Assembly (NCBI GenBank): GCA_041658125.1
Contig: JBBAAS010000003.1
Span: 10,830-74,829 of the forward strand
Direction of reading: 5' to 3'
From: Candidatus Shapirobacteria bacterium
Lineage (GTDB): Bacteria > Patescibacteriota > Microgenomatia > UBA12405
DNA length: 64,000 nucleotides
Numbering within the stretch: the stretch's first letter is position 1; each line of letters begins with the position of its first letter. The translations under genes were made by a program, and so were the position numbers. The notes beneath the pieces were generated by a model. The model did not search any database. It was not told where the DNA came from and was given only the letters and a program-made list of their open reading frames with translations. Positions 3,020 through 47,206 of the stretch are shown here, piece after piece.

Positions 3020-3096
3020 TCATCACTTCAGTAAAAAGAAACTAAATAAGGCGACAAACCAATTTAAATTGGTAATAAACGGTGTAGCATACCGTT

Positions 3097-3555: not shown

Positions 3556-3763
3556 AATGTCTCAACCTGATATCCATTCACCTTTTTCAGTTTCTAAAGC
3601 CCCTTCTGAGTCTGATTATTATCGTGCCAATAGTCAATGCCTTTGTGACATTTGTCAAAAACCATACTGGAGGCATTCTTTCGAAACGGACCCTAAGTAT
3701 CTAGATAATAATCAACAACCATTTCTAATCAGATTGTGTAATGGTGATTTAGTGAAACTTTAG

Positions 3764-4687: not shown

Positions 4688-5698
4688 AGTTTTGATCTTG
4701 ATCCCAAAATTAACCTAATTATCGGCCCCAATGGCTCCGGGAAAAGCAATATTCTTGAGTCAATTTATCTTTTGGCCTCCGGGAAAAGTTTTCGCTCCTC
4801 ATCACTTTCTAAATTAGTCAATTGGAATTCCTCCTTTTCTCTGATCCGGGGGGTCTTGTTGAAAAATAACGAAAATATTAATCTCGAAGTTCAATTAACT
4901 AAAGATCCGGCCAAGGCTAGTACTCTCCGCCGTTTTCTAATTGAGTCTGTTCCTAAAACCAGGGCCAAATACCTTGGTGTTCTCAAAACCGTTATTTTTC
5001 ACCCTGAAGATATCCGTTTGGTTACCGGTTCTCCTTCCCGTCGCCGCGAATTTTTGGACAGCATTTTTCAAACCTCACAATGGCGCTACACTTCCGCTCT
5101 TTCCCAATATAATCGGGCTCTTAAGCATCGAAACGAGCTATTGGATCAAATTCGTCTTGGTAAAAATCAAAAATCCGAAACTTTTTACTGGGACCAGTCG
5201 CTTGTTAAAAATTCTGAAATTATTCATCAGCATCGGCAGGATTTCATCGAATCTGTTAATTATTTTTTTACCACTCATCCCAACTCTGAAATTTCTACCA
5301 TTTCCATAAACTATTATCCCTCCATTCTCACTCCCGAAAAACTTCAAAACAATTTTGCTCACGATCTTGATCGGGGCTACACCCAGTTTGGTCCCCATCG
5401 GGATGATTTCACTTTTGACAATTCAGTTTTTCCTTCAGCCGATAAAAATTTAGCTTTTTGGGGCAGTCGTGGCCAGCAACGGTTGGCTACTTTGGCTCTT
5501 CGTTTGGCTCAAATCGATTATTTCCATCGCACCTATTCAGAAAGCCCCATTCTTCTTCTTGATGATATTTTTTCCGAGCTTGATTATCACCATCGTAATT
5601 TAGTCACCAAAGTTTGTCAAAAATATCAAACGATTTTCACTTCTTCCGAAGAAGGTATCATTTCCATTCTTCCCAAAGCCCATGTTATCCGTCTATAA
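4637..5698 (+). CDS. recF: DNA replication and repair protein RecF
   Basis: MYLTKLTLDNFRSYRSQSFDLDPKINLIIGPNGSGKSNILESIYLL (Walker A) and a C-terminal LLLDDIFSELD. The upstream part of the longer track ORF is frame read-through. Confidence 0.85.
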   Translation: MYLTKLTLDNFRSYRSQSFDLDPKINLIIGPNGSGKSNILESIYLLASGKSFRSSSLSKLVNWNSSFSLIRGVLLKNNENINLEVQLTKDPAKASTLRRFLIESVPKTRAKYLGVLKTVIFHPEDIRLVTGSPSRRREFLDSIFQTSQWRYTSALSQYNRALKHRNELLDQIRLGKNQKSETFYWDQSLVKNSEIIHQHRQDFIESVNYFFTTHPNSEISTISINYYPSILTPEKLQNNFAHDLDRGYTQFGPHRDDFTFDNSVFPSADKNLAFWGSRGQQRLATLALRLAQIDYFHRTYSESPILLLDDIFSELDYHHRNLVTKVCQKYQTIFTSSEEGIISILPKAHVIRL

Positions 5699-5707
5699 TA
5701 ATTAAAG

Positions 5708-6145
5708 ATGTTAACCCAAAGCGAAATTCAAAATTTAATTAAAACCGCCAAACTTACTCGTCGTCATACTTTTAGCCATGTTTCTAATCATAAAATTGGC
5801 GCCAGTGTTCTCACTGCTGACGGTTTTTACTTCGGTGGTTGCATTACTAAGGGTTTTATCTCCGGCCTTGGTATTTGTGCCGAACGCTCGGCCATCAATC
5901 ATGCCGTTGTTCACGGCCACTACCAATTCCAGGCTCTCTGTGTTGTTGACACCAGTCTTACTTATCCTTGCGGTGCCTGTCTTCAGTTTTTAATGCAATT
6001 TTACCAGGTTGATTATCGGGATATCGATATTATTATTGCCGATATTCACGGTAAATATAAAGTTACTTCTCTTCTTGAACTTCTGCCACACGGCTATCAA
6101 ACCACCAAAAACCTCCGCCGCATCAAAAAATACCAAAAGTTCTAA
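5708..6145 (+). CDS. cdd: cytidine deaminase
   Basis: CAERSAI and PCGACLQF zinc-binding motifs of the CDA family; 145 aa. Confidence 0.75.
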   Translation: MLTQSEIQNLIKTAKLTRRHTFSHVSNHKIGASVLTADGFYFGGCITKGFISGLGICAERSAINHAVVHGHYQFQALCVVDTSLTYPCGACLQFLMQFYQVDYRDIDIIIADIHGKYKVTSLLELLPHGYQTTKNLRRIKKYQKF

Positions 6146-6175
6146 GCTATCTTCCTAGTGTATTTTTTCCCATCT

Positions 6176-6187
6176 TGTACTATAATA
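6176..6187 (+). promoter_or_regulatory. putative -10 region (TATAAT) of the rRNA promoter
   Basis: cttgtacTATAATact lies about 140 nt upstream of the mature 16S 5' end; no convincing -35 box. Confidence 0.25.
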
Positions 6188-6252
6188 CTTCTACTTTCCG
6201 CCAAGGGCGGATTTTTGATCATTAACAATCAGCGTTCTTGAAGTCATGGTTG

Positions 6253-6266
6253 TCAGTGCCAGAAGA
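6253..6266 (+). promoter_or_regulatory. 5' half of the pre-16S processing stem; it pairs with 7842-7855
   Basis: Leader gtcagtgccagaag is complementary to trailer cttctggtactgac (one G:U), a typical RNase III processing helix flanking 16S. Confidence 0.45.
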
Positions 6267-6327
6267 TGACACCGATAATTTCGGTTTTCATTTTCATTTT
6301 TTCCCGATTGTATCGGGATTCGTACTA

Positions 6328-7796
6328 AGAGTTTGATCGTGGCTCAGGGTGAACGCTGGCGGTGTGCCTAAGACATGCAAGTTGAACGGTCCCGATGATC
6401 CCCGCAAGGGGGCTATCGGGACAGTGGCGAACGGGTGAGTAATGGATAGGAACGTACCTCCCAGAGGGACATAGCCCCGCGAAAGCGGGGGTAATTTCCC
6501 ATATTCCCGCAAGGGGAAAGATGCAAATCACTGGAAGAGCGGCCTATTTGCTACCAGCTAGTTGGTGGGGTAATGGCCTACCAAGGCGATGACGGCTAAC
6601 GGCTCTTAGCGGAGAGTCCGTCACAATGGGACTGAGACACGGCCCATACACCTACGGGTGGCAGCAGTTAGGAATTTTGCGCAATGGACGAAAGTCTGAC
6701 GCAGCGACACCGCGTGGAGGATGACAGCCCTCGGGTTGTAAACTCCTTTTCTTTGATATTACTTTCAGAGGAATAAGTAGCTACTAACTACGTGCCAGCA
6801 GTCGCGGTAATACGTAGGCTACAAGCGTTACCCGGTTTTATTGGGTGTAAAGGGTCTGTAGGTGGTTTTTTAAGTCTTGTTTCAAAGACTCCGACTCAAT
6901 CGGAGGAAGGGGCAGGATACTGGGAAACTAGAGTTATATCGGAGTTACTGGAATTTGTAGTGTAGGGGTAAAATCCGTGGATACTACAAAGAACACCAAG
7001 CGCGAAGGCGGGTAACTAGGTATTTACTGACACTTAAAGACGAAAGCTAGGGGATCAAATCAGATTAGAGACCTGAGTAGTCCTAGCCGTAAACTATGTC
7101 TGTTAATTTTTCTCGGCTTTTGCCGGGGGAGGTGTAAGCTAACGCGTTAAACAGACCACCTGGGGAGTATAGCCGCAAGGCCGAAACTCAAACGAATTGG
7201 CGGGGAGGCGCACAACCAGTGGAGCATGTGGTTCAATTCGATACTAAGCGATGAACCTTACCTGGGTTTGAAATCCTGCTGCAAGCCCGCAGAAACGCGG
7301 GCCCCCTTCGAGGGTGCAGGACAGGTGTTGCATGGCTGTCGTCAGCTCGTGACGTGAGTTGTTCTCTTAAGTGAGGTAACGAGCGCAACCCCCATCCGGT
7401 GTTACTGTGTCACCGGAGACTGCCCAGCATTATTTTTGTTGGGAGGAAGGAGGGGACGACGTCAAGTCAGCATGATCCTTATGTCCAGGGCTACACACAT
7501 CCTACAATGGGCTTTACAAAGGGTTGCTAAACCGCGAGGTCAAGCTAATCCCTAAAAGAGCCCCCAGTTGGGACTGCAGGCTGAAACTCGCCTGCACGAA
7601 CTCGGAATTGGTAGTAATCGCACATCAGCAGCGTGCGGTGAATACGTTCTCGCCTCTTGCACACACTGCCCGTCAAATCAGCAAAGTTGAAGGTACCCAA
7701 AACTTCCGTTTATTCGGGAACTAAGGTAAAGTCAGCGATGAGGGTTAAGTCGTAACAAGGTATCCGTACTGGAAGGTGCGGATGGATCACCTCCTT
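6328..7796 (+). rRNA. rrs: 16S ribosomal RNA, about 1.47 kb, not followed by a 23S gene
   Basis: Begins AGAGTTTGATCgTGGCTCAG and ends GGATCACCTCCTT. Internal landmarks GTGCCAGCAGtCGCGGTAA and GcACACACtGCCCGTCA are present. It is a bacterial type with primer-site mismatches. Confidence 0.9.
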
Positions 7797-7870
7797 TGAG
7801 GATTTGTCCCGATCGAAAGATTGGGACCATGAATCGAACTCTTCTGGTACTGACAATCTGACTTCAAACA

Positions 7871-7898
7871 AAAAACTCCCGTAATGGGAGTTTTTTTG
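7871..7898. terminator. intrinsic terminator immediately after 16S; possibly bidirectional, also serving the minus gene that ends at 7917
   Basis: aaaaaACTCCCgtaatGGGAGTttttttt: a GC stem of 6 bp followed by a T-run, with an A-run on the other side. Confidence 0.55.
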
Positions 7899-7916
7899 GT
7901 GTTGAAAAAAAGTAAA

Positions 7917-8642
7917 TCAAGGCAATATTTTCTCGATTCGGGAAAAAATAGCCGAAACAGTCGACATTTCCTCAGAACCTTTTTCTGCATAATAGCTGAT
8001 AGAAATATCAACTATCGCTCCTGCTTTCACATTATATGAAGTATAGTCACGGGTAAGGGTACCTGCGGGTTTAAAATAACCATCGCCTACATAATATTTA
8101 TTACCATTAAACTTTTTAGCCACAACAGTCTGAGGATTCTCTAATATATTGCATCCCCAATCGCTACACTGGGCTTCTACCTCATTTTTTCCTACTTTCA
8201 AACTATTCAGCCATTTTTTCCAATTATCCAAATCCACTATCCATTCAGAGCCTTCGTATGCACTCTTAAACTTATCCCCTAATTCATATTTGTAAACATT
8301 AACCCGAAGAGTAATCGGCTTCGACAAATCAGTTATAATTTTTGACAAATCAACATTTCCGCTATGATAAATATCCACTTCATCCAGTTTTCCGTTGTAA
8401 ACAATATTACCCTCGCCGATAGCCTTAAATAAATCTTCAATCATCAATAAGCTGTTTATTGAAACAGTTGGCAACGCTTCTTTTTGGACAATAGTCGGCT
8501 CAATAATTGTTGACGTTGGGCCACAATCAATAATTTCCAATTTTCTGATAACATTTTGTTGCCAAAAATATACTCCGCCTCCGCCCACCACCACTGCCGC
8601 TACCAGACTGACAATATAAGGAATTAGATACTTCTTACTCAT
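7917..8642 (-). CDS. hypothetical secreted or membrane-anchored protein
   Basis: N-terminal TM segment (IVSLVAAVVVGGGGVYFW); no recognisable domain. Confidence 0.45.
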   Translation of the reverse strand: MSKKYLIPYIVSLVAAVVVGGGGVYFWQQNVIRKLEIIDCGPTSTIIEPTIVQKEALPTVSINSLLMIEDLFKAIGEGNIVYNGKLDEVDIYHSGNVDLSKIITDLSKPITLRVNVYKYELGDKFKSAYEGSEWIVDLDNWKKWLNSLKVGKNEVEAQCSDWGCNILENPQTVVAKKFNGNKYYVGDGYFKPAGTLTRDYTSYNVKAGAIVDISISYYAEKGSEEMSTVSAIFSRIEKILP

Positions 8643-8953
8643 AGTATCGTCACTCCCAGCACCACTTCCACAATCTGCACAATAAAATAGCTCACAAAAA
8701 TAATCAAAAACCCGATCAATCCTGCTGTTATTTTTCCGTATCCTTCCTTAATTTTATTTTGGTCTCCTGCCGAAGTCATCAATGTCAGTCCTCCCGACAC
8801 CAGCACTACCAACAAGCACAACCCTGCTAATCCATAAACATACGGCAACAATTGTGACACCAAAAGACCGACATTTCTGAATCTGCCGGCCACCGGATCA
8901 GCAATAAAAATATCATCCATTATTCCTTGTGCCAATACTTTTTTAATAAACAT
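8639..8953 (-). CDS. small two-helix membrane protein, pilin-like (TrbC/VirB2-type architecture)
   Basis: 104 aa with a hydrophobic helix, a short charged loop (SAGDQNKIKEGYGK) and a second hydrophobic helix to the C-terminus. It is a paralogue of the next gene. Confidence 0.35.
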   Translation of the reverse strand: MFIKKVLAQGIMDDIFIADPVAGRFRNVGLLVSQLLPYVYGLAGLCLLVVLVSGGLTLMTSAGDQNKIKEGYGKITAGLIGFLIIFVSYFIVQIVEVVLGVTIL

Positions 8954-8954
8954 C

Positions 8955-9368
8955 TTAAAATCCCGGAATTTTTAATATATCTCTCCCAATCAAGCTTAGC
9001 AAAAACAACGATCCGATACATATTACCAGCCCCGTAATTGCCGACGTTACCGTTTCCTTTGCGCCCTGAACTACTTTTGGATCGCCTTTCGACATCGACA
9101 TTTGGATAAATCCATAAATCATCAGCAATAGTGCAATTCCTCCGGTGATTCCAAATAATTTTGGTAGTAACCACAGCATAAAATCTTTCATCTGTACCGG
9201 GACACAACCCAACGCCGTATACACTCTTGGAAAATTTAAATCAGGCGCTCCGGATGGATTTCCCGATGCATCGCAAAAAGTACTCGTCGCCAAACTTATT
9301 TTCGTCAGGCTAAAAAACACCGCTGGTGCAGTCAAAAAACCGGTTAATTTTCCCCACTTCATCCCCAA
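8955..9368 (-). CDS. small secreted two-helix membrane protein, pilin-like
   Basis: Signal-peptide-like N-terminus, then helix, loop (SMSKGDPKVVQGAKE) and a helix running to the C-terminus. Confidence 0.35.
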   Translation of the reverse strand: MGMKWGKLTGFLTAPAVFFSLTKISLATSTFCDASGNPSGAPDLNFPRVYTALGCVPVQMKDFMLWLLPKLFGITGGIALLLMIYGFIQMSMSKGDPKVVQGAKETVTSAITGLVICIGSLFLLSLIGRDILKIPGF

Positions 9369-9394
9369 AGTATATCAAATGTTAGAATTAATTT

Positions 9395-11146
9395 GTGTCC
9401 AAATCCCTCCGGGTCATCTTGCTCTCCTTATTCTTTCTTTTTATATTCCTCCCATGCCTGCCCCCGGGGGGTCAAGGGGAGGTGTCCCGGTTATTGGGAC
9501 GGAGGGGTTTTGTCTTTGCCAAAACCATCGACGAAGAAATCGCCGACGTCGTCAAACAGATCAGTGATCTTGAAAAGGCTATGGCTCCCCTTAAAACCGA
9601 GTCCAAAGATCTTCAAAGTAAAATCACTCTGGCCAAAATACAAATTGCCTCCACCGAAAAACAGATCGTCAATCTCGGCCAACTTTTGATCGACAAAGAA
9701 GCTGATCTTGAAGTTCAAAAAATTCTTTTGGGCGAACGTGTCCGTCGCTACTATATCAATAGTAAAAAATTTGATCCTTATTTAGTCTTTTTTTCCAACA
9801 GTCAAAATTCCAGCCTTATTCAGGAATATTCCTGGTATCAATCGATCATCGCCCGCGACCGCAACACCATTTCCCAATATGTTACCGATATTACTAATTT
9901 AAATCTCAACAAAACCAAGCTTGAAGTCGAAAAAGTTAAGCTGGCCGCTCTCAAGAAAAATTTTGAAAATCGTTTTGGTTTTCTGGCTACCGAAATCAAA
10001 AAAGCCGAAAATTATAAAAATATTCTTTCCGCCAAACAGCAGTCTCTTATTGCCGAAAAAACCGCCATGTTCAACACTTCCGTCGGTGACGTTTCCACTT
10101 CTGACGATCCCGCCTCCCGTGCCGATTACAACCCCGGTTTCTCTCCCGCCTTTGCCGCTTTCTCTTTTGGCGCACCTCACCGCAAAGGCATGTCCCAATT
10201 TGGCGCTTTTGGCCGCTCCAAAGCCGGTCAGAATTACGAAACTATTCTTCGTGCTTATTACGGCGATATTAAAATTGAAAAAATTAATACCGATGGTTCG
10301 ATCAAAACCACTATCGGTAGTTTGCCTTTTGAAAGCAATTATCTAGTCGGTATTGCCGAAATGCCGGCCGGTTGGGGCGATCAGGGCGGTTACGAAGCGC
10401 TCAAAGCCCAGGCTATTGCCGCCCGCACTTACGCTCTTAACTCTACCGGCAATCTTTCCGGTACTATTTGTGTTACCGAAGCCTGTCAGGTTTATAAAAA
10501 ATCCCGCTTTGAATCACCCGGTCGGTGGAAACAGGCCGTCGAGGATACCCGCGGCATGGTTATCAAAAGTAATAAAACCGGCAATATTTTTTCCACTATG
10601 TATGCCTCCACTGCCGGTGGTGCTACTTATGGCTATTCTTCCGCCGATCACTCTACTCCCCAGCTTTGGGACACCACCTGCGGCAATCAGGGTTGCTGGC
10701 CCAATGACTCCTATGAAAAACAGGCTGGTTCGTCTTGGTATTACAAAGGTTGGTACAAAACCCGTAGCAATGCCGCCTACGGTCGTTCTCACCCGTGGCT
10801 CACCAACGATGAGTTTTCCGACATTATCAACGCTGTTTTATATTTTTCCAATAGTAACGACTCTTCCCATCTTTCCCAAATTCAAAATTGTATCGGTTCC
10901 TGTGACTCCAATGCCTGGTCCCGCGACGAGCTTCGTCGGCAGGTAGGAGACAAAGGTGGTCCGGTCTCTTCCGTCAATTCGATCTCCGTCGATTATTCCA
11001 CCGGCGGTTATACTCAAAAAGTCCGCGTCTCCACCGACAAAGGCGATTTTAGTTTTGATGGCGGTGCCTTCAAAGACATCTTCACCCTTCGTTCTCCCGG
11101 CGCGATTACCCTCAAATCAAGTTTATTTAACATAGAAAAAAAATAA
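9395..11146 (+). CDS. SpoIID/LytB-domain protein with an N-terminal signal peptide and coiled-coil
   Basis: EALKAQAIAARTYAL is the SpoIID/LytB signature, and the N-terminal half is coiled-coil-like. An in-frame GC-rich repeat encodes PCLPPGGQGEVSR. Confidence 0.65.
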   Translation: MSKSLRVILLSLFFLFIFLPCLPPGGQGEVSRLLGRRGFVFAKTIDEEIADVVKQISDLEKAMAPLKTESKDLQSKITLAKIQIASTEKQIVNLGQLLIDKEADLEVQKILLGERVRRYYINSKKFDPYLVFFSNSQNSSLIQEYSWYQSIIARDRNTISQYVTDITNLNLNKTKLEVEKVKLAALKKNFENRFGFLATEIKKAENYKNILSAKQQSLIAEKTAMFNTSVGDVSTSDDPASRADYNPGFSPAFAAFSFGAPHRKGMSQFGAFGRSKAGQNYETILRAYYGDIKIEKINTDGSIKTTIGSLPFESNYLVGIAEMPAGWGDQGGYEALKAQAIAARTYALNSTGNLSGTICVTEACQVYKKSRFESPGRWKQAVEDTRGMVIKSNKTGNIFSTMYASTAGGATYGYSSADHSTPQLWDTTCGNQGCWPNDSYEKQAGSSWYYKGWYKTRSNAAYGRSHPWLTNDEFSDIINAVLYFSNSNDSSHLSQIQNCIGSCDSNAWSRDELRRQVGDKGGPVSSVNSISVDYSTGGYTQKVRVSTDKGDFSFDGGAFKDIFTLRSPGAITLKSSLFNIEKK

Positions 11147-33447: not shown

Positions 33448-34326
33448 TTAAATCCCAATTTTCCAAACATTCTTTTCCAAAAAAGCTTCGATGGTTTGAC
33501 GACCGGCTTTGTTTAGAAGATTGGGATGAGAAAGTTTATTGGTTTTGGCAAAATCACTAAGGGTGACAATTTTTTTACCCTCCAGATAGGCTAATCGTTT
33601 ATGATAACTGTTGGTTAGTGCTTTACCGACCATTTCTTCCATGACGGTTGTTATTTCCTTTGCATCAAATTCTTTAAATGCATCATAGTATTTTTTTCGA
33701 TCAATAAATTTGATGTTTATGGGAACAAAACCTTCTCGGATAAGTAGATAATTATTGATAACTCGGCCAATACGACCATTACCGTCAACAAAAGGGTGAA
33801 TATATTCAAAGGTTAAATGTAAACGAGCAATACGCTTGATAATATTTTCATGGCTGGAAGCATTGTATTGAGATAACATTTTTTCAAGCCTCTCAATAAC
33901 TTCTTTGGGGGTTGGAGCAATGTGACTGCCAACCCGAACAAACTCGCCATCTTTTCTAAATCTGCCCGCTACGTCATCACGAATATTGGAAATTAACATT
34001 TGGTGCAGAGTTAAAATCACACCAAGAGTGAGTTCCTGTTCTTTGGCTTTTTTATCAATATAGGAAACAACCCGGGCAAGATTTTTTGTTTCAAAAATTT
34101 CTCGTTCAGTAATAAATCGATCAAGATCAATCTGTAGAAGAATCTTTTCGGTTTCTTCGAGAGTCAGGGTGCTGTTTTCAATGGCGTTGGAATTGTAAAC
34201 TTGCTCAGCAATTTCAGCTTCACTAATTAGTTGAATAAGAGCCTCTTTGCCGGTGGATGCTTGGTAATACCGTTGACGAAGACTACTGATTTTACTAAAG
34301 ACATTTAATATATTAGTCATATCCAT
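33448..34326 (-). CDS. Fic/Doc (Fido) family protein
   Basis: HPFVDGNGRIGRVINNYLL is the Fic motif HPFx[DE]GNGR. Confidence 0.8.
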   Translation of the reverse strand: MDMTNILNVFSKISSLRQRYYQASTGKEALIQLISEAEIAEQVYNSNAIENSTLTLEETEKILLQIDLDRFITEREIFETKNLARVVSYIDKKAKEQELTLGVILTLHQMLISNIRDDVAGRFRKDGEFVRVGSHIAPTPKEVIERLEKMLSQYNASSHENIIKRIARLHLTFEYIHPFVDGNGRIGRVINNYLLIREGFVPINIKFIDRKKYYDAFKEFDAKEITTVMEEMVGKALTNSYHKRLAYLEGKKIVTLSDFAKTNKLSHPNLLNKAGRQTIEAFLEKNVWKIGI

Positions 34327-36038: not shown

Positions 36039-36347
36039 ATGATCATTACCATTAACGGGAAAATTGTTAAGCCGGGAAAAGAATCCAAGAAAAAACCACG
36101 AATGAGTCCGTGGTTCAAAAAATGGTTATTGGTAATCGGAGGAACATTGCTGTTGATGACGGTCCCGGCCTCGTTTTTGGGATTTGACGAAGACTTAGGG
36201 TCGGCTTGGCTTTTTCTTATTTTGTTAGTATTAATAATACTTTTTGCAGTGGTGATATTATCGGCAATAGTTACTTGGATAAAAAATATTTTGAAATTTA
36301 AAATGGTGATTTACACTGTTGAAAAACCTAAAACAGTAAAAGGTTAG
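36039..36347 (+). CDS. small membrane protein
   Basis: 102 aa with two TM helices. Confidence 0.4.
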   Translation: MIITINGKIVKPGKESKKKPRMSPWFKKWLLVIGGTLLLMTVPASFLGFDEDLGSAWLFLILLVLIILFAVVILSAIVTWIKNILKFKMVIYTVEKPKTVKG

Positions 36348-36607
36348 TCAAACTTGCGGGAGGTTTGACAGTAACTACAAAATTCACAATCAGGATGGGG
36401 CTCCAGCTGTACCGAAAAATTCGGACGTTTTTCAAAGCCGTAAGGTAAGGCGCGGCGGTGGGGGACGCCACGCCGATCAATTATTTTTTGTGGGCGTGAT
36501 TTTTAAAATTTTTTGGCTCCCCGTAGTGCGCAAACTTCGCAACTGGTTCACTGAGAGTTCGCTCCCGGCTCTCCCTTTGAAGTTTGCTTTCAAAACTGTT
36601 ATTTAAA
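36348..36607. other. GC-rich structured intergenic region: strong hairpins with a T-run, repeat-like fragments; candidate ncRNA or array boundary
   Basis: GTCAAACttgcgggaggTTTGAC, GGCGCGGCGgtgggggaCGCCACGCC followed by ttatttttt, and GCAAACTTC...GAAGTTTGC. Confidence 0.3.
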
Positions 36608-37378
36608 TTATTTATTCCCGGCTATTTTTTCGACATCCACATAACCCTTACCCTTGTCATCCTTTTTCGTGTAGGGAATTTTATCAGGCGATATGCCAAA
36701 GTGTATAAAAAATTCTGACAATACTTCAAAGGTAACATATTTTGAGTCATAAATTGCGTCTGAAACATCGGCATTAATTTTTTCATAAAAATCTTTAGTT
36801 ACATATACTATGGACGCGTCATCAAAATCCGACTTGTAGAATAAGTCTTGCACCTCCTTCGGTTTTAAAAATAGTTTTTTTCCTTCCCATAAACTTGCGT
36901 TTTTAATACCAACATTAAACTTGACTTTTTTTACCTTGGGGATATGGGTCAACATCTTTTTGTAAAGTTCCACAAACTCATAAACATACTCCACAATAGC
37001 CAAACTATTAAGTTGTGGGTATTCAACAAATTTATTATGGTCTTGACCCCATCCCAAAAAACTGTCGTCAGTGTATGCTATGGCGACTAAAGAGCCATCC
37101 CGATACAATCGAATTGTTTTTCTATCTCCGTTTTTTACCTCCCAGCACTTACCATCTTTGATTCTTGGCCAGTCGAGTGTGAGTAGGTTCCAGCCAGAGT
37201 ATCTTAAATATGGCGGGTTTTTTAACATGTCACGCAAAGGGTTGTTTTCCTCAGCAAAAAAGTTATCAAGATTGATTTTCTCTTGTGGTTCTACTCCTAA
37301 AACAACTAAAGGTGGAATATAGGTATTATTGTTTGTTTCCATAAATTGTCTCTTCAATTTTTGCCGGAATACTGTCAA
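36608..37378 (-). CDS. hypothetical protein, last gene of the restriction-modification-linked operon
   Basis: 256 aa; start overlaps the upstream gene; no family recognised. Confidence 0.45.
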   Translation of the reverse strand: MTVFRQKLKRQFMETNNNTYIPPLVVLGVEPQEKINLDNFFAEENNPLRDMLKNPPYLRYSGWNLLTLDWPRIKDGKCWEVKNGDRKTIRLYRDGSLVAIAYTDDSFLGWGQDHNKFVEYPQLNSLAIVEYVYEFVELYKKMLTHIPKVKKVKFNVGIKNASLWEGKKLFLKPKEVQDLFYKSDFDDASIVYVTKDFYEKINADVSDAIYDSKYVTFEVLSEFFIHFGISPDKIPYTKKDDKGKGYVDVEKIAGNK

Positions 37379-38045
37379 TGTCGATTGCCGGCACTAATGT
37401 AATTATTGAAATCTTCTCCTTTACTTCGTCCATCTGGTTAGACAGACTTTGGTGAAATTCCTGTAGGCTATTAGGTGAGCGCTTAGATAACTTGTGCAGT
37501 TCTTGAACCGTAAGCCAAGTAATGTCATCGTCAGTTCTAATAGGAATCCCAAAAAACTCCTTTGTAGATTCACTCTCCACTTTGGTAATTTTTATGATGA
37601 AGTATTTTTTGCCTTCATCTTGGGGTAAAATAGATATTACTCCTAAACCTAAAGACGCATCACCACTACTCGCACACCAATCAACTTTAATATCTAATCG
37701 AGGGTAAACATTGGTAATGATTATTCCGTTAATTTGTTTTCCATCATAGAAGTCAATTTTTGACATTAAATCAAGCGCTGTAACATAATCGTGCGGAGAA
37801 TTGGCTCGTTTTTCTGTGGACAAACCACAAATAATATAACCGCCACCACCGTTGGCAAAGCTGACAACATCTTTTATAAGTTCAATAATTGCCTTTCGTT
37901 TGGGTAAGTCGTAGGGGTGTTTCTGCTTTGCTTCAAATACACCAGACTCTCTTTGAGAAATCAATTTATCGAAATCGCTATTTTTTAATATTTCGGCGAT
38001 TTCTTCGAATGTAAGTGTTTCGTCTTTATTTGTTAGATTGCTCAT
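37326..38045 (-). CDS. AlbA_2 / Schlafen-like divergent-AAA (putative DNA-binding) domain protein
   Basis: ESGVFEAKQK...IKDVVSFANGGGGYIICGL matches the E..EFK...AFAN..GG.L.IGV pattern of AlbA_2 domains. Confidence 0.45.
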   Translation of the reverse strand: MSNLTNKDETLTFEEIAEILKNSDFDKLISQRESGVFEAKQKHPYDLPKRKAIIELIKDVVSFANGGGGYIICGLSTEKRANSPHDYVTALDLMSKIDFYDGKQINGIIITNVYPRLDIKVDWCASSGDASLGLGVISILPQDEGKKYFIIKITKVESESTKEFFGIPIRTDDDITWLTVQELHKLSKRSPNSLQEFHQSLSNQMDEVKEKISIITLVPAIDIDSIPAKIEETIYGNKQ

Positions 38046-38701
38046 TTTGGTTGCTCGATGTGTGGATTAGTAAATTTCCATTTCAACCGGTACCAACTCA
38101 ACAAAACCATTTCAGAATATTTTCGGTAACAAACATACATTTTTCCAATAATATTTAATTTTTTCGCGGGAAACATTTTTAAGCCACCAAAACCTGTTTC
38201 GACTCTGGAATAATAGTAATTTCCTTCGGCGTTTCTGAAGGTCAACAACAAACCTATCCTGTCTCTTTTATGTTCTGCTTCGGGGTCAAGATGAAAAATT
38301 ATAAATTCGGCCATATCTGCGGTCACCCCGTTACTTGTTGATTCAATTTTCAAGTCCCTTTCTTCATCGGGAACGAGTATGTTGGTTCCAGTCATTGATA
38401 AATCCAACCTCCAAACTTTTTGAATGTCTCTGACGATATTTACAAATGATTCAATCTTGATGTCGTAAGCGGGACTTTTGCCAATATTTCTGATTCTTAT
38501 TTTTCTATCTTTCATGGCAATACCCTTAAAATAAACTGCTAACAATGGCATCAATTGAAGTTCGTTTGCTTTATTCGCGGTCTTCCAGGAAAAGTAAGCA
38601 ACAAGAGCCGTTGTAAAAATTAACACTATATTCAATAGACTTAAAGCCTGAGGAAAATATGGCTGTTGAGATAACTCGATAAACTTTTGCCAGTAATCCA
38701 T
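38042..38701 (-). CDS. hypothetical protein with an N-terminal TM anchor
   Basis: 219 aa; overlaps the downstream gene by 4 nt (operonic). Confidence 0.45.
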   Translation of the reverse strand: MDYWQKFIELSQQPYFPQALSLLNIVLIFTTALVAYFSWKTANKANELQLMPLLAVYFKGIAMKDRKIRIRNIGKSPAYDIKIESFVNIVRDIQKVWRLDLSMTGTNILVPDEERDLKIESTSNGVTADMAEFIIFHLDPEAEHKRDRIGLLLTFRNAEGNYYYSRVETGFGGLKMFPAKKLNIIGKMYVCYRKYSEMVLLSWYRLKWKFTNPHIEQPK

Positions 38702-38767
38702 ATTAATTCACCAATTCCTCTCCAAACGCCTTAGCTAAAATTGATTGGGTTAATTTTTCGTATTTAT

Positions 38768-41700
38768 TCATATTCGTGTGTAATATTTATTCTTTACACA
38801 GGCGGATTTAACAAAACTTGTATCAGAAACCTTATCTTTAGGAATATCAATATTGAAATAAAGGCAAAAAACTAGGTCGTCAATGTGATTCTTTATCGCT
38901 TGCTGTTTATCAAAATCGATTACCGGTAAAGACATTAACTCAGATAAAGCAATTATTTTTTTGTCTAACCCAAGCCCTTCCTTGTTGTAGTTTGCTTCGA
39001 TGACTTTGCTTACCAGGGAGGAATTTCTCTTGATTGGTAACCTTATCTTTTCTCCCTCTTTTTCCATGACTAATTTGCGATTTTCAACGTAAACTCTATC
39101 AAACTTTTGAATCATTATTTTCGATAAATCTACGAAACTTAAGATGGTTTTGTCTTTTAAAGCCAATACTTCTTCAACTCGTTTAATACTTTCTTTTTTT
39201 ATTGATTCATTATTTTTGCCAATTATTGGGGGACGTATTAGATCTTTAATTACTTTTAGACTTACCAATATTTTATTGGTATCCTCATTTTCAGCGCTAG
39301 CAACATTTTTCAAAATCCATTTTGTAACTTTTGAGTTTAGAAGAGCAAATAAATAAAATATCTCTTGTTTATTATCAGAGGAAATAGTCATATATTTATT
39401 TGTTTCTAACAATATTTTTCGGTTTGTGAAGCAAAAGTTTTTTGTATTTTTTGTTCGCCATATTAGTTTGTTTTCTTGTTTAAATGTCTGAATACCTTGG
39501 CTTCCTTGTGGGAAATTAATTTTCTTGTTTGAAGGGTAATATCTTTTTCCTTTTGGAACTAAATAGTTTACTTCGTCAAGTTCGTCAACTATTTCGTAAT
39601 AATCGTCAACGCTGTTAGTAATATATTTTTCATCTATCAAAGCTCCACCATCGAAGTAAAATTTATTCCCAAACTCGACACTAGATAAAACATGATCTGA
39701 ATAAATTGCGATTCCAATACTATTTCTTATATATTCTTCATAAAGACATTCTGTAATTATGTTAAATTTAATAAAATTCCAATTACCGACATTTTGTAAT
39801 AATTTATTTTGTAGGACTAATTTTTTTATAACTTTTTTACCATGAGAAATGTTTTTAAGACATGTATCGATGTCATCGTTTTTATCTTTATATTTAAGAA
39901 TTTCTACTCTGTGTATAATTGCTGGAATTTCCCTTGAAACTATAAAGATTAAACTTGAGGTTGGAATAGGTTTATTACTTTTTAATCCTCGACCGATAAA
40001 CATTTTTCCGCTAAATATAATAATTTTCTTAATTGTGGTAAATCTCGAAAGATGATAGCGTAGTACGTCAAAATCAGGATTTATTAGAATTGTTTGGGGT
40101 ATGATATAGCATAGTTTCCCCTTATCTTTAAGTAGAGCCAAGCCAAGCGCTATAAAAAATGCAAATAGATTCGGTTTAGGCGCATATTTTTTTTTATTTT
40201 CAGGTGTGCTGTGTAGGTTAACACCGTAAATATCACTTAATTTGGCTTTCTTATTTTTCATAAGTTCGAAACTAAGTAGCCTTTGTTTAATACAATCGTT
40301 ATATCTAATGTATGGGGGGTTACCGATAACATAATCAAAACGTTTCCTTAGGGTTTCGGTGTGATTTTCGAGACTTGTTTTCATTTCTTTCAAATCATCT
40401 TCATCTCGGACATAACTTGAATAACCCAAATTTAGTTTTTCAGTAAATAGACCCATCTGGCCCTTGCTTTTTTGGTAGGCTATATCTATATCATTAACTG
40501 TATTCTTCAGAGCAGTGTCCATGAATTCAGAAATGGAATCATTTGTCTTAAAAACTTTGATTTTTTTGTCTATCGGATTGTTATATTTCTCGTTAATAAT
40601 CAATGAAAGCATACGCATCAGAATACTCATTTCGGCAAGATAAAGAGGAAATTCCTCAATATCAAGTCCAAAGATACCATTTGTTACCGCTTCCTCAATT
40701 TTCTTTGAAGCTTCTTCGCTACCGTTTTTAAAACCCTTAACTATGACGTCTGTGGCAGAATAAAGGAATGTGCCACTACCACAAGAAGGATCAATGATTG
40801 AGATACTATCTTTGTCAAGTTCATATCTTTTGGAAACTGTCTCGGGGGTAAAGCCAACTTGCTCTAACATGAAGTTAACTACTGCCGGGTCGGTAAAATA
40901 TTGGCCTTTTTTGCTTTCGTCGTAAAGTTCTTTTAAGTAGTTTTCGTAAATATAGCCAAATATTTCATTTCTAACATTGGCATAATTATATTTTTTAATA
41001 AAAATAAAAATATCCAACCAGGGAGAAATGTCAGAAAGATTGTTCTCGAGACTGTGGTAGAGTTCTAGAATCTTGTCTTTAATAAACTCCTGTTCTTTTA
41101 TAAAAGGACGATAAATATTTTTCGATATTCTTGCTGAAATGCCCTCAATAATACCGAGAATGTCTTTGTACCTCCCAACTTTTAGAGATTCATGAATTCT
41201 TTTGACTATGGTTTCAAATTCGTTAGCAAAATCATCAAAATCGTTATCGACCAGTGTTTTGTAAAGTATGAACTGAATGACATAGGCGTAGGTAAGTTCA
41301 ATTGCCCGTTTTCCCCTCTCCTTATCGTTTGATGCTTCAAGATATCCCTCAATTTGTAATTTGTTTTTGAATGATTGGATGAGCTTAGTGATGTCTTCAA
41401 AAAAGAGTTGACGATTATTTTCTACGCGGAGTTTTGTTTCTTCAATAAGTGCCAATTGTCCGGTTTTCTCAAAAAATGATAGATAGTAAAATTCGGGTTT
41501 GACGTATTCCTTCCAAAAGGTGAGAAATAATTGGGTGTTGGTTAATAAGTCTTCTAGGGTAAAAACTTTAAAAATGTTGTTATTGTAAAATCGCCAGGTA
41601 TATCCGTCGGTTAAAATGCCATAATGTTTGTCAAAATCTTTCTGGTAGTTAAATAATTGGCTTTCTCCGGTTTTGATATTCCCATAACACTCAACCTCTA

Positions 41701-41953
41701 CTGGTATAGCTATCTCGGAATTAATATAGATATAAAAATCGGCTTTTCTTTTCTCTTTGGCTTTTTTTTCATAAATAAATTCATTTTTGCGATTTTCCAA
41801 TTTAGCTGAAAGATTACCTTCTCTTAGGTCAAACAATTCAGATTCGAAAACTTGTTTAACAAAACTTTGGACTCCAGTTCCAACCTCGGTGGTGCGATAA
41901 TATTCTTTATCTTTTTGCCATAAGGCGTGAAGTGGGTTTAATGTGTTTTTCAT
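38768..41953 (-). CDS. type IIG restriction-modification enzyme (N-terminal PD-(D/E)XK nuclease, gamma-class N6-adenine methyltransferase, target-recognition domain)
   Basis: IDPSCGSGTFLYSA (motif I) and GNPPYIRYN (motif IV, NPPY). N-terminal D...EVECYGNIK nuclease-like motif. 1061 aa, an Eco57I/MmeI-like architecture. Confidence 0.7.
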   Translation of the reverse strand: MKNTLNPLHALWQKDKEYYRTTEVGTGVQSFVKQVFESELFDLREGNLSAKLENRKNEFIYEKKAKEKRKADFYIYINSEIAIPVEVECYGNIKTGESQLFNYQKDFDKHYGILTDGYTWRFYNNNIFKVFTLEDLLTNTQLFLTFWKEYVKPEFYYLSFFEKTGQLALIEETKLRVENNRQLFFEDITKLIQSFKNKLQIEGYLEASNDKERGKRAIELTYAYVIQFILYKTLVDNDFDDFANEFETIVKRIHESLKVGRYKDILGIIEGISARISKNIYRPFIKEQEFIKDKILELYHSLENNLSDISPWLDIFIFIKKYNYANVRNEIFGYIYENYLKELYDESKKGQYFTDPAVVNFMLEQVGFTPETVSKRYELDKDSISIIDPSCGSGTFLYSATDVIVKGFKNGSEEASKKIEEAVTNGIFGLDIEEFPLYLAEMSILMRMLSLIINEKYNNPIDKKIKVFKTNDSISEFMDTALKNTVNDIDIAYQKSKGQMGLFTEKLNLGYSSYVRDEDDLKEMKTSLENHTETLRKRFDYVIGNPPYIRYNDCIKQRLLSFELMKNKKAKLSDIYGVNLHSTPENKKKYAPKPNLFAFFIALGLALLKDKGKLCYIIPQTILINPDFDVLRYHLSRFTTIKKIIIFSGKMFIGRGLKSNKPIPTSSLIFIVSREIPAIIHRVEILKYKDKNDDIDTCLKNISHGKKVIKKLVLQNKLLQNVGNWNFIKFNIITECLYEEYIRNSIGIAIYSDHVLSSVEFGNKFYFDGGALIDEKYITNSVDDYYEIVDELDEVNYLVPKGKRYYPSNKKINFPQGSQGIQTFKQENKLIWRTKNTKNFCFTNRKILLETNKYMTISSDNKQEIFYLFALLNSKVTKWILKNVASAENEDTNKILVSLKVIKDLIRPPIIGKNNESIKKESIKRVEEVLALKDKTILSFVDLSKIMIQKFDRVYVENRKLVMEKEGEKIRLPIKRNSSLVSKVIEANYNKEGLGLDKKIIALSELMSLPVIDFDKQQAIKNHIDDLVFCLYFNIDIPKDKVSDTSFVKSACVKNKYYTRI

Positions 41954-42134
41954 AGACTTTCTAACGATAAGAGTATTATATCCCAGTATTTTTCAATACT
42001 AATGGTAATTAAATTGTTCGTCTTTCCATATAAATTTTTTGTTTTCCGACCGAGCTTCTTATAGAGATCTATTCCTCTACGCTGAAAATTTTTCCTCCCT
42101 TTACTTTCCCTCCCAAATTGTGTAATTTTAACCA

Positions 42135-42482
42135 ATGTGGATCATATTGTTGGCCGGAGCGGTTGGAGGAATCCTAAGAGGCGTTCTTGGAATCGCCAAG
42201 GACCTGATCACTAAAAAAGAACTGACGATCAATTGGGTCTGGTTTGGGGTCACGGTTTTAATTGCGGCCATACTCGGGATGGTGGTTGCCAGCTTTTTTG
42301 CCGAAGATCCAAGGATCGCGATTCTTGGGGGTTACAGCGGTTCGGATCTGGTTGATGGCATCATGAAGTTGAAGCTAAACGAATTATTTAAGACAAAAAA
42401 AGTAGTGGTAGAGGAGAAAAAATACGGGAGCTTTGAGGGCTTGATTAAGACCGACGGGAAGCCGGCAAAAGAGAAATCCTAA
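42135..42482 (+). CDS. small two-TM membrane protein (holin-like?)
   Basis: 115 aa with two TM helices and a charged C-terminus. Confidence 0.3.
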   Translation: MWIILLAGAVGGILRGVLGIAKDLITKKELTINWVWFGVTVLIAAILGMVVASFFAEDPRIAILGGYSGSDLVDGIMKLKLNELFKTKKVVVEEKKYGSFEGLIKTDGKPAKEKS

Positions 42483-42850: not shown

Positions 42851-43693
42851 TTATTTTATAGATTTTCTTTTTGAAAGATAATTTTTACTGGTAACAATTG
42901 GTTTGCCGATTTCTTTCTCAAGCTCTTTTCTCGCATTTCCGGCAACCCTCCCGCCCCGGTTAGCATCCTGTTTTAGTTTTGGCACTCCCTTTGATTTTTC
43001 CTGACGGTGGATTTCAGTGGTTGATCTTTCACCCAACATGGTAAAAATTAGTTCAAAATCATCCATATGGTCACGTAAATTTTCTCTTTTGAGGCCTTTT
43101 AACTTTTTGTATTCGGCCGGGGTGACCCCAAAAGTAGCTTTGGAAATTTCGGCGGTTAAAATCTCGTAATCTATTTGTTTTTCTGCCCCTCGTTTTTGCC
43201 ACTCATCGGTTAATTCTTCGCGGATGGCAATGCCCCGCATCCGTTTTTCAATCCAATCTTCCGGATAACCCTTGAGCTTATAAAGTACCCGGGTTCTTTT
43301 GGTGGCCAACTCCGGATTTTCAATTTCCTGTACCCGTTCGTAGCCGACTTTGGCTAACCATCTTTTAAAAGGTTCGGCTTTGGGAGAGGGGATCGATTGA
43401 ATAATGCGAAAAATATTTTCAGTATCGGCGCAGTCTGTTTCATACTTTTTCCCGTCAGTTGATTCTAATTTCAGTTGTCGACAAATTGTCGACAACTCAA
43501 TTCCATCCTCACTTTTTACCCGAATTTTCATTTTAAACCAATAATCGCGGGCATTAACGCTATCTGTCAGCGCCTCAATTACATCGACAACTGAAAACCA
43601 CCATTCGTTTAAATATATTATTCTTCTGATTTTTTTGCCTTTGAAAATGGCCAGATGGTTGTCATTCATACTAAAATAATACTCAAGTAACAC
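42851..43693 (-). CDS. DinD-like DNA-damage-inducible protein with a Bro-N domain
   Basis: N-terminal IRRIIYLNEWWFSVVDVIEALT (Bro-N) and C-terminal KKLKGLKRENLRDHMDDFELIFTMLGERSTTE, which resembles E. coli DinD. Confidence 0.6.
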   Translation of the reverse strand: MLLEYYFSMNDNHLAIFKGKKIRRIIYLNEWWFSVVDVIEALTDSVNARDYWFKMKIRVKSEDGIELSTICRQLKLESTDGKKYETDCADTENIFRIIQSIPSPKAEPFKRWLAKVGYERVQEIENPELATKRTRVLYKLKGYPEDWIEKRMRGIAIREELTDEWQKRGAEKQIDYEILTAEISKATFGVTPAEYKKLKGLKRENLRDHMDDFELIFTMLGERSTTEIHRQEKSKGVPKLKQDANRGGRVAGNARKELEKEIGKPIVTSKNYLSKRKSIK

Positions 43694-43735: not shown

Positions 43736-44407
43736 TTAGTAAGTCTTGGTGTAACAATTCACCGCTTTGGTAAAGCCGGCCTTGACTGCTTCTTTTTCTG
43801 AACAAAACCATTGATCGCCCTGATCAAGCTCCAAAGCCACATTACTATAGTTGCCGCAACCGGAAAAAAAGTAAGTTTTTTTACCTTCACGGACATTGCC
43901 CTTGATATCGCACTTGGAACTATCGGGATTAGTCTTCTGATAACACTTCGGGCTAAAAACACCCAAGTTATCGACTTTTGCCGATTGAAAGGCCGCCTTT
44001 AATTTTTCCGATTCGATTGAAGCGGTTGATGTAAATCGCGCCCAGCCGGACAGAATCATTTGCTCATTTATTAATTGGTCATCAACATAAACCAAAGCCA
44101 AAAACCGGCCAAAGTGGTCATTAAGCTCACCAACAAGCCGGACTTTTTTCCCGGTTAGAAGACGGGTAAGTAAGGCCGTCGCCTCATCGGCTCCGCACAA
44201 ACCCTCTTCAGGCGCATTAACACTCATTAATCTAATTTGCCGGCCATCATCAACAATAAAAGTATCGCCATCTATAATTCTTTGGACTGAGTATTGGGTC
44301 GGGGCAGGGGTCTTGGTCTTAATCAGAAATATACCTAAAAGCAAATTAAAAATAATTGACAAGGTCAAAAATATTTTAGTCAATAAAAGTAGTTTATACT
44401 TAATCAA
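43736..44407 (-). CDS. secreted thermonuclease (SNase-like)
   Basis: VQRIIDGDTFIVDDGRQIRLMSVNAPE is the staphylococcal nuclease motif; N-terminal TM or signal segment. Confidence 0.7.
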   Translation of the reverse strand: MIKYKLLLLTKIFLTLSIIFNLLLGIFLIKTKTPAPTQYSVQRIIDGDTFIVDDGRQIRLMSVNAPEEGLCGADEATALLTRLLTGKKVRLVGELNDHFGRFLALVYVDDQLINEQMILSGWARFTSTASIESEKLKAAFQSAKVDNLGVFSPKCYQKTNPDSSKCDIKGNVREGKKTYFFSGCGNYSNVALELDQGDQWFCSEKEAVKAGFTKAVNCYTKTY

Positions 44408-46265: not shown

Positions 46266-46679
46266 ATGCGTCATTTTAATCGCGATTCCCTCGATTACCA
46301 CTTTATCGATAAGCTCGAAGCCGGGCTGGTTTTAACCGGTGCCGACGCCAAATCTCTTCGTACCCAACCCGCCCAATTTCAAAATTCCCAGGTCATTATT
46401 ACCAACGGCATTCCGGAAGTTATCAATCTCAAAATTCCTCTCTACAAATACTCTCAAGGCCAGCTGATCGACACCACCCGCTCCCGCGCTCTTCTTCTCG
46501 CCGAAAAACAAATCGCCAAATTACAAAGCTACCGTCATCAAAAATATATGCTCATCCCCATTGCCATTTATTCCAAAGGCAAATTTTTCAAGCTTGAAGT
46601 CGGTATCGGCCGCAAATTCCGTCAGTATGAAAAAAGGGAGAAAATCAAGGCCAAAGAACTTCGCCAATCACTCGTTTAA
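46266..46679 (+). CDS. smpB: SsrA-binding protein SmpB
   Basis: EAGLVLTGADAKSLR, RSRALLL and KLEVGIGRKFRQYEKREKIKAKE match SmpB conserved blocks. Confidence 0.85.
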   Translation: MRHFNRDSLDYHFIDKLEAGLVLTGADAKSLRTQPAQFQNSQVIITNGIPEVINLKIPLYKYSQGQLIDTTRSRALLLAEKQIAKLQSYRHQKYMLIPIAIYSKGKFFKLEVGIGRKFRQYEKREKIKAKELRQSLV

Positions 46680-46757: not shown

Positions 46758-46763
46758 AACAGA

Positions 46764-47206
46764 GGAGATGCCCACTAACGAAGCGGGGTCCAAAGTTGAC
46801 TGAAAAAGACGTCTACAAGCTTAAGATAATTTTCTCCTACACTCTCACTGGCTAAAATTAACAAAAGGCAGTGAAATGCCGATTGGTGAGGGCATTACCC
46901 CTCGCTTGTCTTTTTAGAAAATCGGGATCCTAAAAATAGCATTTCGGTTTAGTTAACACTGATTAATCTTCTCCGAAATAGGGGACTAATCAATGACTAG
47001 CGGCTTACGCCAAAGCGTAAACGGCTTGGCTGGCGGGTTGACTTGCGAAAACCGAACCAGTTACTTCACGAGCCTGATTAAGGGCTGTTCGAAGAGCATT
47101 ACCAATTTTGTTGGCATTATATTTTTGGTCCTTGTTTAGCGACTCTAGAACCAAAGTCGGCTTGCAGTCTTTTAAGGTACAAACTCTGTCGATTCAATTC
47201 ATCTCC
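46764..47206 (-). ncRNA. ssrA: candidate tmRNA (ssrA); boundaries are tentative
   Basis: On the minus strand the 5' end is GGAGAUG-AAUUGAAUCGACAGAG (tmRNA-like D-analog), and the 3' end is GGAC-CCCGC-UUCGUUA-GUGGG-CAUCUCC (T-arm plus a 7-bp acceptor complementary to the 5' end). An internal reading frame ends ...ASQAVYALA-UAA. Adjacent to smpB. Confidence 0.4.

Follow-up and report, generated by a model that had tools for sequence, protein, structure and literature searches.

Introduction

Only in 2025-2026 did it become clear that bacterial Schlafen nucleases are anti-phage transfer RNA (tRNA) endonucleases, and the forms studied to date are single proteins with a fused sensor. Prokaryotic Schlafen (pSlfn) proteins protect their hosts from phage by cleaving tRNA, 97% of them are fused to presumed sensor domains, and their catalytic motif has been defined as Ex4(E/D)xK (PMC13056530); the members that have been tested are anti-phage (PMC13056530, PMC13552941). 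Here we analyze a 64-kb stretch of contig JBBAAS010000003.1 (herein the window) from Candidatus Shapirobacteria, a group of the Candidate Phyla Radiation (CPR), in which four genes lie head to tail on the minus strand within a 5.3-kb segment. The first encodes a type IIG-like restriction-modification (RM) protein; the products of the three smaller open reading frames (ORFs) that follow are called ORF2, ORF3 and ORF4. ORF3 is a pSlfn protein with an intact predicted catalytic site and ORF4 is its obligate partner. The locus is best described as three independently mobile modules in a row: the RM enzyme, ORF2 and the ORF3-ORF4 pair.

The pair shares with pSlfn proteins such as RorSlfn5 and EcoSlfn7 (Perez Taboada et al. 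2026, PMC13056530) an N-terminal Schlafen/AlbA_2 nuclease domain carrying Ex4(E/D)xK and a second, presumed sensor module. Both occur in defense islands, and the single-chain relatives of the pair, at ~460 residues, have the standard pSlfn layout. Unlike the described proteins, the window has its second module as a separate, translationally coupled gene, so that the fusion typical of the group is absent; the ORF4 family is moreover undescribed, and its hosts are mainly CPR/Patescibacteria. Cash (CbCash, 9ylu) likewise joins a short Schlafen domain to a C-terminal regulatory domain, with E17 and D22 corresponding to residues of Ex4(E/D)xK, and is a tRNA endonuclease that is inactive until a signal arrives (PMC13462974). 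The regulator of Cash, however, is a Csx15 domain that binds cyclic tetra-adenylate (cA4) and depends on type III CRISPR, whereas ORF4 matches no family; in the vicinity of the window genes we saw no Csx15 match and no CRISPR-associated gene.

Three further systems are related in arrangement or in logic. Schlafen RNases have been proposed as back-up suicidal effectors within bacteriophage exclusion (BREX)-type loci (PMC12839542). As in the window, these Schlafen-HisKinase-wHTH effectors of BREX and BREX-related loci stand beside a methylase-based defense of the PglX/Eco57I type, but their partner is a histidine kinase with a winged helix-turn-helix (wHTH) rather than an ORF4 domain, and BREX genes (PglZ, BrxC and others) are absent here. 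PrrC, encoded with the restriction system EcoprrI (PMC1484252, PMC3458546), is an RNA-cutting suicide effector in or behind a restriction operon and provides a second line of defense. It consists of an ABC-ATPase and a distinct nuclease domain unrelated to Schlafen, so the likeness is one of logic only, and its linkage to a type Ic system is obligatory, whereas restriction linkage is frequent but optional here and involves several types. CapRel (PMC9712102) compares with the ORF3/ORF4 family in that the latter occurs as a gene pair or a fused chain and has a C-terminal module thought to inhibit the toxin and sense phage; CapRel differs in having a tRNA pyrophosphokinase as its toxin instead of a Schlafen RNase, and there is no relation in sequence or fold.

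ORF3 Is a Prokaryotic Schlafen Protein

ORF3 contains a SLFN_AlbA_2 domain (PF04326) at residues 33 through 150, scoring 27.2 bits against a cut-off of 25.3, with residue 33 at model position 1; the same domain is precomputed in 14 of the 18 listed family proteins, the window's own included. The Ex4(E/D)xK motif consists of E33, E38 and K40 (Table 1). Across 17 homologs E33 and K40 never vary, E38 is retained in at least 90%, and the motif is matched within the first 90 residues in 27 of 27 distinct partner proteins from the loci that we fetched. When the family profile was run against the PDB, the sole solved structure matched was CbCash (E = 3e-4), in which the equivalent residues, E17 and D22, are essential (PMC13462974). 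The domain score, the motif and the CbCash match agree with the earlier note on this DNA, which had called the protein AlbA_2/Schlafen-type. ORF3 is a pSlfn with an intact predicted Ex4(E/D)xK site, and by analogy with its described relatives its most likely substrate is tRNA. In NCBI, proteins identical to ORF2 and ORF3 belong to a Candidatus Shapirobacteria metagenome-assembled genome, where ORF3 bears the name "RNA-binding domain-containing protein". ORF3 has no helix-turn-helix (HTH) domain, and Pfam and NCBIfam reveal no ATPase domain in ORF3 or ORF4.

ORF4 Is the Obligate Partner of ORF3

ORF4 has no Pfam match, and none of the 79 clusters that a word-indexed search places in its family carries a Pfam domain; a full profile search retrieves 1010 representatives, 240 of them at E<=1e-30. 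Linkage between the two genes was assessed by scanning 57 fetched loci with our own ORF profiles. A Schlafen gene lies directly upstream of the ORF4 homolog in nearly every locus that holds upstream sequence, and in nearly all loci with separate genes the junction is between -17 and +5 nt, which indicates translational coupling. Pairwise divergences of ORF3 and ORF4 are correlated (r = 0.875 for 20 non-identical loci), a value reached by 0 of 2000 Mantel permutations. A single ORF matches both profiles in eight of the fetched loci (L016, L017, L034, L039, L040, L041, L044 and L052). Among the listed members of the ORF4 family, 174 are standalone and at least 40 are fused to an N-terminal Schlafen region (~460 aa); the catalytic motif is matched in 35 of 40 such fusions, including all that are full-length (~455-495 aa). 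The concatenated sequences of ORF3 and ORF4 align colinearly with the fusions, with the split point within the linker, and the window therefore holds a split version of a ~460-aa pSlfn class. A frameshift artifact as the source of the split was ruled out, given that separate genes with short overlaps are kept in more than 25 diverged loci. ORF4 is an obligate partner of ORF3; the two form one unit and are co-inherited.

The AlphaFold2 (AF2) model of ORF4 is a two-lobed α/β domain with a predicted local distance difference test score (pLDDT) of 91 and a predicted template modeling score (pTM) of 0.91. It has no close solved fold: the resemblance to the TATA-binding protein (TBP) or to S-adenosylmethionine decarboxylase (AdoMetDC) is faint, and a profile search of PDB sequences returned nothing meaningful. 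ORF4 may or may not correspond to the "TBP-like" pSlfn class (1.5%) of PMC13056530. Domains of the ORF4 type are also found fused to a phospholipase D (PLD) nuclease in P0260, the N-terminal/PLD half of which matches the PADLOC candidate PDC-S05, and to HTH_17 (P0250) and RHH_1/HicB-like (P0267) domains; the latter two architectures resemble those of type II antitoxins. From these fusions and from the split/fused duality, we infer that ORF4 would be a restraining and sensing domain of the regulatory or immunity type. A scan of viral contigs found no relative of ORF4, one fusion protein had no match in phage genomes, and for ORF2 the only match was weak and partial (37% identity over 68 residues), with no clear relative; both therefore look like host-side genes.

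A distant fused Schlafen-ORF4-type protein of 434 aa, WP_331731355.1, carries the motif ENDWLDFK and is annotated as "ATP-binding protein". It is encoded on plasmid NZ_CP108410.1 of Kitasatospora sp. NBC_01300 (L058, 5929-7233). A DUF4238 gene adjoins it, and another DUF4238 gene lies near the pair in L004.

Genomic Contexts Separate the Three Modules

The exact four-gene order was seen only on contigs L001-L003, which are near-identical copies of the window, and no homolog of the RM gene stands beside any other pair or any other ORF2 in the fetched loci. The four genes are therefore not the fixed operon that the earlier note had proposed; nor do they appear to be a novel system that exploits the methyltransferase, since the pair elsewhere sits by unrelated restriction systems or housekeeping genes. 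Conservation of the arrangement thus fails where the RM gene is concerned, even though both accessory modules recur 3' of restriction genes.

The contexts of the pair are diverse. In L005 it is divergent from two N6_N4 methylases, with a serine recombinase and close to smpB, and in L007/L021 it is placed between a C5 methylase with a SacI-like nuclease and Vsr. In L040/41 it comes, with a 4-nt overlap, after an HKD-Snf2 helicase and a genuine type IIG enzyme (PDLC03596, E=1.8e-296) that is 24% identical to the window enzyme in the methylase core only. Further neighbors are an Mrr nuclease and a serine recombinase (L031), a helicase-nuclease (L039) and a Ppl/AriA-like ATPase (L043); ordinary genes surround the pair in L008, L009, L016, L017, L022, L032 and L046. 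Serine recombinases or integrases are beside it in about eight fetched loci (L004, L005, L007, L018, L021, L031, L039 and L041).

The L040 region (1675-9573; L041 is alike) runs from an HKD+Snf2 helicase (PADLOC C3a139) through the type IIG gene and the Schlafen-ORF4 fusion to a gene of 322 aa, with 4-nt overlaps, and may be a compact multi-layer system of its own.

ORF2 is found without the pair directly 3' of type I hsdS (L012, L013 and L054/55) and after a type III res-mod-DUF4145 operon (L056/57; res-DUF8168-mod-DUF4145 upstream of the L056 homolog), and on its own in one locus, L014. Its closest homolog (86% identity) is one of those that come after hsdS. ORF2 occupies the tail of the operon in five of six contexts.

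ORF2 Is a Membrane-Anchored Ig-like Protein

The sequence of ORF2 has a transmembrane (TM) helix at residues 20 through 40, and the structure model (pLDDT 74) shows a helix at 16 through 49, a β-sandwich at 54 through 176 and a basic C-terminal helix; the N-terminal anchor noted earlier is thus visible in both. Lysines follow the TM helix and, by the positive-inside rule, the sandwich would therefore face the cytoplasm. The family comprises 34 clusters at 56-86% identity. ORF2 has no match in Pfam, NCBIfam or PHROGs, and none in PADLOC-DB v2.0.0 at E<=0.1. Our guess is that it serves as an accessory sensor or adaptor at the membrane. A 217-aa gene 3' of the pair in L005 was considered as a relative and rejected, as the ORF2 profile does not match it.

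In L013 and L054, the ORF2 homolog is followed by an OLD/AAA_15 gene or a gene for a 434-aa protein, and then by PDDEXK and GmrSD genes. The surroundings of ORF2 in L012, L013, L054 and L056 are compact defense islands in CPR genomes.

The RM Protein Is Type IIG-like

Four Pfam families match the RM protein above cut-off: Eco57I (65 bits), N6_Mtase (62), TaqI_C (35.5) and MmeI_Mtase (27.5). The TaqI_C target-recognition domain spans residues 806 through 897 (cut-off 26.5). Direct translation locates N6-adenine methylase motifs I and IV where the earlier note had reported them; motif I precedes motif IV, the order of the gamma class, and aligns to the S-adenosylmethionine (SAM)-binding motif of the solved BREX methylase PglX/BrxX. 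A single chain thus combines gamma-class N6-adenine methylase motifs with a built-in target-recognition domain, as expected of type IIG enzymes.

The N terminus is less clear. Scanned alone, the first 166 residues match HSDR_N (E=1.6e-4; 22 bits, cut-off 25.1), MmeI_N (model positions 12-148 of 181; 16.7, cut-off 27), HSDR_N_2 and Tox-REase-9, all below threshold and all families with the restriction-endonuclease fold. At residues 84 through 90 (41684-41704, minus strand) the candidate core reads E86-V-E88-C-Y where (D/E)xK would be expected, and the predicted site that lacks the lysine would be either a BamHI-like variant or a dead nuclease. Searches of PADLOC, NCBIfam, the PDB and plasmids with the RM protein matched the methylase core alone: the N-terminal region has no PDB match and no plasmid homolog covering it, and the protein has no close homolog in the PDB or in plasmids.

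The first gene is therefore type IIG-like; its methylase and specificity domain are secure and a nuclease fold is likely. With MmeI/Eco57I-type IIG enzymes it shares a chain of ~1000 aa in which a predicted N-terminal endonuclease-fold region precedes a gamma-class N6-adenine methylase and TaqI_C, and it differs in a very divergent N-terminal domain. Of the architecture proposed in the earlier note, the methylase and TaqI_C parts stand, and the PD-(D/E)XK-like N terminus is represented by sub-threshold matches. Assignment of the protein as the BREX methylase PglX was rejected: it reaches 53 bits with NCBIfam BREX_1_MTaseX, for which the cut-off is 500, and none of the neighbors is a BREX gene (PglZ, BrxC, BrxL or others).

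Gene Boundaries and Neighborhood

Lengths and coordinates of the four ORFs were re-derived and are listed in Table 1; all four lie on the minus strand as previously described. We confirmed that 66 nt separate the RM gene from ORF2 and that ORF2 and ORF3 overlap by 4 nt; the reported 53-nt overlap of ORF4 with ORF3 is corrected to 17 nt. The longer version of ORF4 (256 aa, 36608-37378) requires translation to begin at TTG. On three public contigs the gene callers chose ATG 37342, alignment of homologs concurs, and this is most likely the start. ORF2, ORF3 and ORF4 each have tens of conserved homologs, and they are therefore real genes and not chance ORFs. The RM gene has a GC content of 31.7% and ORF2-4 of ~36%. 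From their spacing, all three modules are probably read from one promoter.

Table 1. Positions of features in the window and, where a locus is named, in homologous loci
Feature	Position	Strand	Length or residues	Description
RM gene	38768-41953	-	1061 aa	Type IIG-like restriction-modification protein
Candidate nuclease core of RM protein	41585-41743	-	71-76; 84-90; 114-123	ADFYIY; PVEVECY; LTDGYTWRFY; inside HSDR_N/MmeI_N matches
Motif I of RM protein	40763-40795	-	387-397	IDPSCGSGTFL; SAM-binding; direct translation
Motif IV of RM protein	40310-40321	-	545-548	NPPY; catalytic; direct translation
ORF2	38042-38701	-	219 aa	N-terminal TM helix, Ig-like β-sandwich, basic C-terminal helix
ORF3	37326-38045	-	239 aa	pSlfn RNase domain and ~90-aa helical linker; presumed effector
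Ex4(E/D)xK motif of ORF3	37926-37949	-	E33, E38, K40	ESGVFEAK, within RESGVFEAK; direct translation
ORF4	36608-37342	-	244 aa	From ATG 37342; ORF3 partner, two-lobed α/β domain; presumed regulator/sensor
Non-coding stretch 3' of ORF4	36348-36607		260 nt	Local GC-rich run GGCGTGGCGTCCCCCACCGCCGCGCC (minus strand) within 35% GC DNA
Fic gene	33448-34326			Precomputed Pfam
Bro-N gene	42851-43693	-		Precomputed Pfam
SNase gene	43736-44407			Precomputed Pfam
smpB	46266-46679	+		84 nt from tmRNA gene
tmRNA gene	46763-47206	-		Rfam 64.7 bits; missed by ARAGORN
16S rRNA gene	6321-7797	+		Complete
ORF2 homolog, L012	8001-8660			0-5 nt 3' of last restriction gene
ORF2 homolog, L013	8001-8666			0-5 nt 3' of last restriction gene
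ORF2 homolog, L054	8001-8666			0-5 nt 3' of last restriction gene
ORF2 homolog, L056	6552-7202			0-5 nt 3' of last restriction gene

A 211-nt region downstream of ORF4 gave no structure signal when its folding was compared with that of shuffled sequences (z = -0.58), and an Rfam scan had no match within the four-gene locus or the non-coding stretch 3' of ORF4. The flanking Fic, Bro-N and SNase genes that the earlier note had listed are all backed by precomputed Pfam annotation, and the defense character that it ascribed to the region is upheld. The Bro-N protein matches phrog_15286 nearly end to end (E=4.7e-94) and anti-repressor Ant families more weakly, a sign that DNA of phage or satellite origin may adjoin the island; a related Bro-N fragment occurs near the Schlafen pair in L025 and L029.

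The window also contains smpB and the transfer-messenger RNA (tmRNA) gene, ssrA. In L005, which is a contig from another CPR genome, the order is smpB, a large serine recombinase, and then the restriction genes and the Schlafen pair, and the smpB/ssrA neighborhood may be a recurrent island site. A complete 16S ribosomal RNA (rRNA) gene is present and Rfam finds no 23S rRNA anywhere within the 64-kb window; the rRNA genes therefore appear unlinked.

Discussion

Our analysis indicates that the locus is probably a piece of a defense island in which a type IIG-like enzyme, ORF2 and a split pSlfn system lie side by side as separable modules. As a first line, the RM enzyme would methylate the cell's own DNA at N6-adenine and, if its N-terminal nuclease is active, cut unmodified incoming DNA. 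ORF3 and ORF4 would form a latent complex in which ORF4 binds ORF3 and silences it in the manner of an antitoxin. A phage cue sensed by ORF4 would then release or activate ORF3, and cleavage of tRNA by ORF3 would halt translation as a back-up once restriction has failed. The suggestion of the earlier note that the downstream genes include an abortive-infection-type effector or sensor is, on this evidence, the likeliest reading.

Several observations weigh against this explanation. In the RM protein, the candidate nuclease core follows an HSDR_N-type pattern (D72...E86-x-E88) in which the lysine of (D/E)xK is not evident, and the enzyme may thus be methylase-only. Scans of 36300-42300 for promoters and terminators detected sites no more numerous than in shuffled sequence, so that a single transcript is neither backed nor ruled out and the operon structure is deduced from spacing. 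ORF2-4 have no match in PADLOC-DB v2.0.0 at E<=0.1 and nothing in PHROGs or NCBIfam; five Schlafen-ORF4 fusions likewise went unrecognized by PADLOC, and the fused forms by PHROGs. Conserved residues of ORF4 include R47, T55, D57, E68, K75, E118, D220 and K221. The many invariant polar residues in the ORF4 alignment could equally mark an enzyme with an active site or a ligand pocket and, as ORF4 has no recognizable fold relative, it is architecture that speaks for a sensor or inhibitor role. Finally, about 7 of some 16-18 independent pair contexts have no defense gene nearby, and 30% of pSlfn genes lie outside defense islands (PMC13056530); a non-immune role is therefore possible.

Since restriction operons repeatedly carry one or the other accessory module at the 3' end, a layered relation to restriction, as back-up or guard, is conceivable. 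By this account, which we regard as unlikely, the pair and perhaps ORF2 would be coupled to the adjacent restriction system and fire when a phage anti-restriction factor disables it. At least four unrelated settings (the window, L040/41, L007/L021 and L005) have the pair directly 3' of restriction genes, and the tail position of ORF2 fits the same scheme. Precedent comes from PrrC, which is silenced by type Ic EcoprrI and activated by a T4 anti-restriction peptide (PMC1484252, PMC3458546), and from the description of Schlafen as a back-up effector in BREX loci (PMC12839542). However, within 5 kb of many pairs there is no restriction gene, the position is accounted for just as well by piggy-backing on a strong constitutive operon, and the unrelated types of the partner systems argue against a specific protein-protein contact. 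In a broader and similarly doubtful form, both modules would be restriction guards recruited to the 3' side of operons of the type I, IIG, III and C5-methylase kinds. They would watch for failed or inhibited restriction, for instance by detecting anti-restriction proteins or, at the membrane, incoming DNA that has escaped restriction, and would then set off tRNA cleavage. If true, this would extend the single PrrC/EcoprrI precedent to a back-up layer that is modular and widely shared and has a new sensor fold.

We consider it improbable that the four genes form one integrated machine in which the three small proteins depend on precisely this type IIG enzyme. The tight spacing on one strand and the repetition of the order on three public contigs speak for it, and P0101 and P0084, homologs of ORF2 and ORF3 at ~71% identity, are both on contigs of 3617 nt, which suggests a shared contig. 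The three contigs are, however, near-identical copies of the window, the RM gene has no homolog by any other pair or ORF2, the nearest ORF2 relative lies behind hsdS with no Schlafen pair, the pair is found with unrelated restriction systems or with none, and the RM gene departs from ORF2-4 in its GC content. This possibility is already largely refuted by the genomic contexts; tight head-to-tail packing in a defense island does not alone define a system.

There is a similarly small chance that the pair is a plain toxin-antitoxin addiction module, with ORF3 as toxin and ORF4 as antitoxin, which stabilizes the island or a mobile element and senses no phage. Like type II toxin-antitoxin systems, the pair consists of adjacent, translationally coupled genes, relatives of ORF4 (P0250 and P0267) carry DNA-binding domains as type II antitoxins do, and recombinases are frequent neighbors. 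ORF4 of the window, on the other hand, has no DNA-binding domain. Stable fusion in at least 40 relatives misfits a labile antitoxin and fits fused immune sensors of the CapRel type (PMC9712102), and the pSlfn proteins that have been tested are anti-phage (PMC13056530, PMC13552941). That ORF3 is a non-catalytic, nucleic acid-binding AlbA_2 protein and the pair housekeeping or regulatory is very improbable: many putative transcription regulators contain AlbA_2 domains, the Pfam score barely exceeds its cut-off and some pairs have housekeeping contexts, but Ex4(E/D)xK is strict in the 27 distinct partners and all full-length fusions, ORF3 has no HTH domain, and the family is patchily distributed and linked to mobile elements.

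Schlafen defense and its placement beside methylase-based systems are already known. What is new is the partner domain family, its split/fused duality and alternative fusions, and the restriction-tail family of ORF2, none of which is recognized by PADLOC v2, Pfam, NCBIfam or PHROGs. The locus defines a large unannotated class, of ~1000 representative clusters, in which the second module is a new domain, encoded either by its own gene or in fusion with Schlafen, a PLD nuclease or antitoxin-like DNA-binding domains. As two polypeptides that can be produced separately, the pair gives natural genetic access to effector and regulator one at a time and would help in studying how Schlafen nucleases are silenced and switched; the fused Kitasatospora member offers a cultivable entry point. 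ORF2, for its part, represents a family of small membrane proteins that trail three types of restriction system in CPR bacteria, whose defense repertoire is poorly known.

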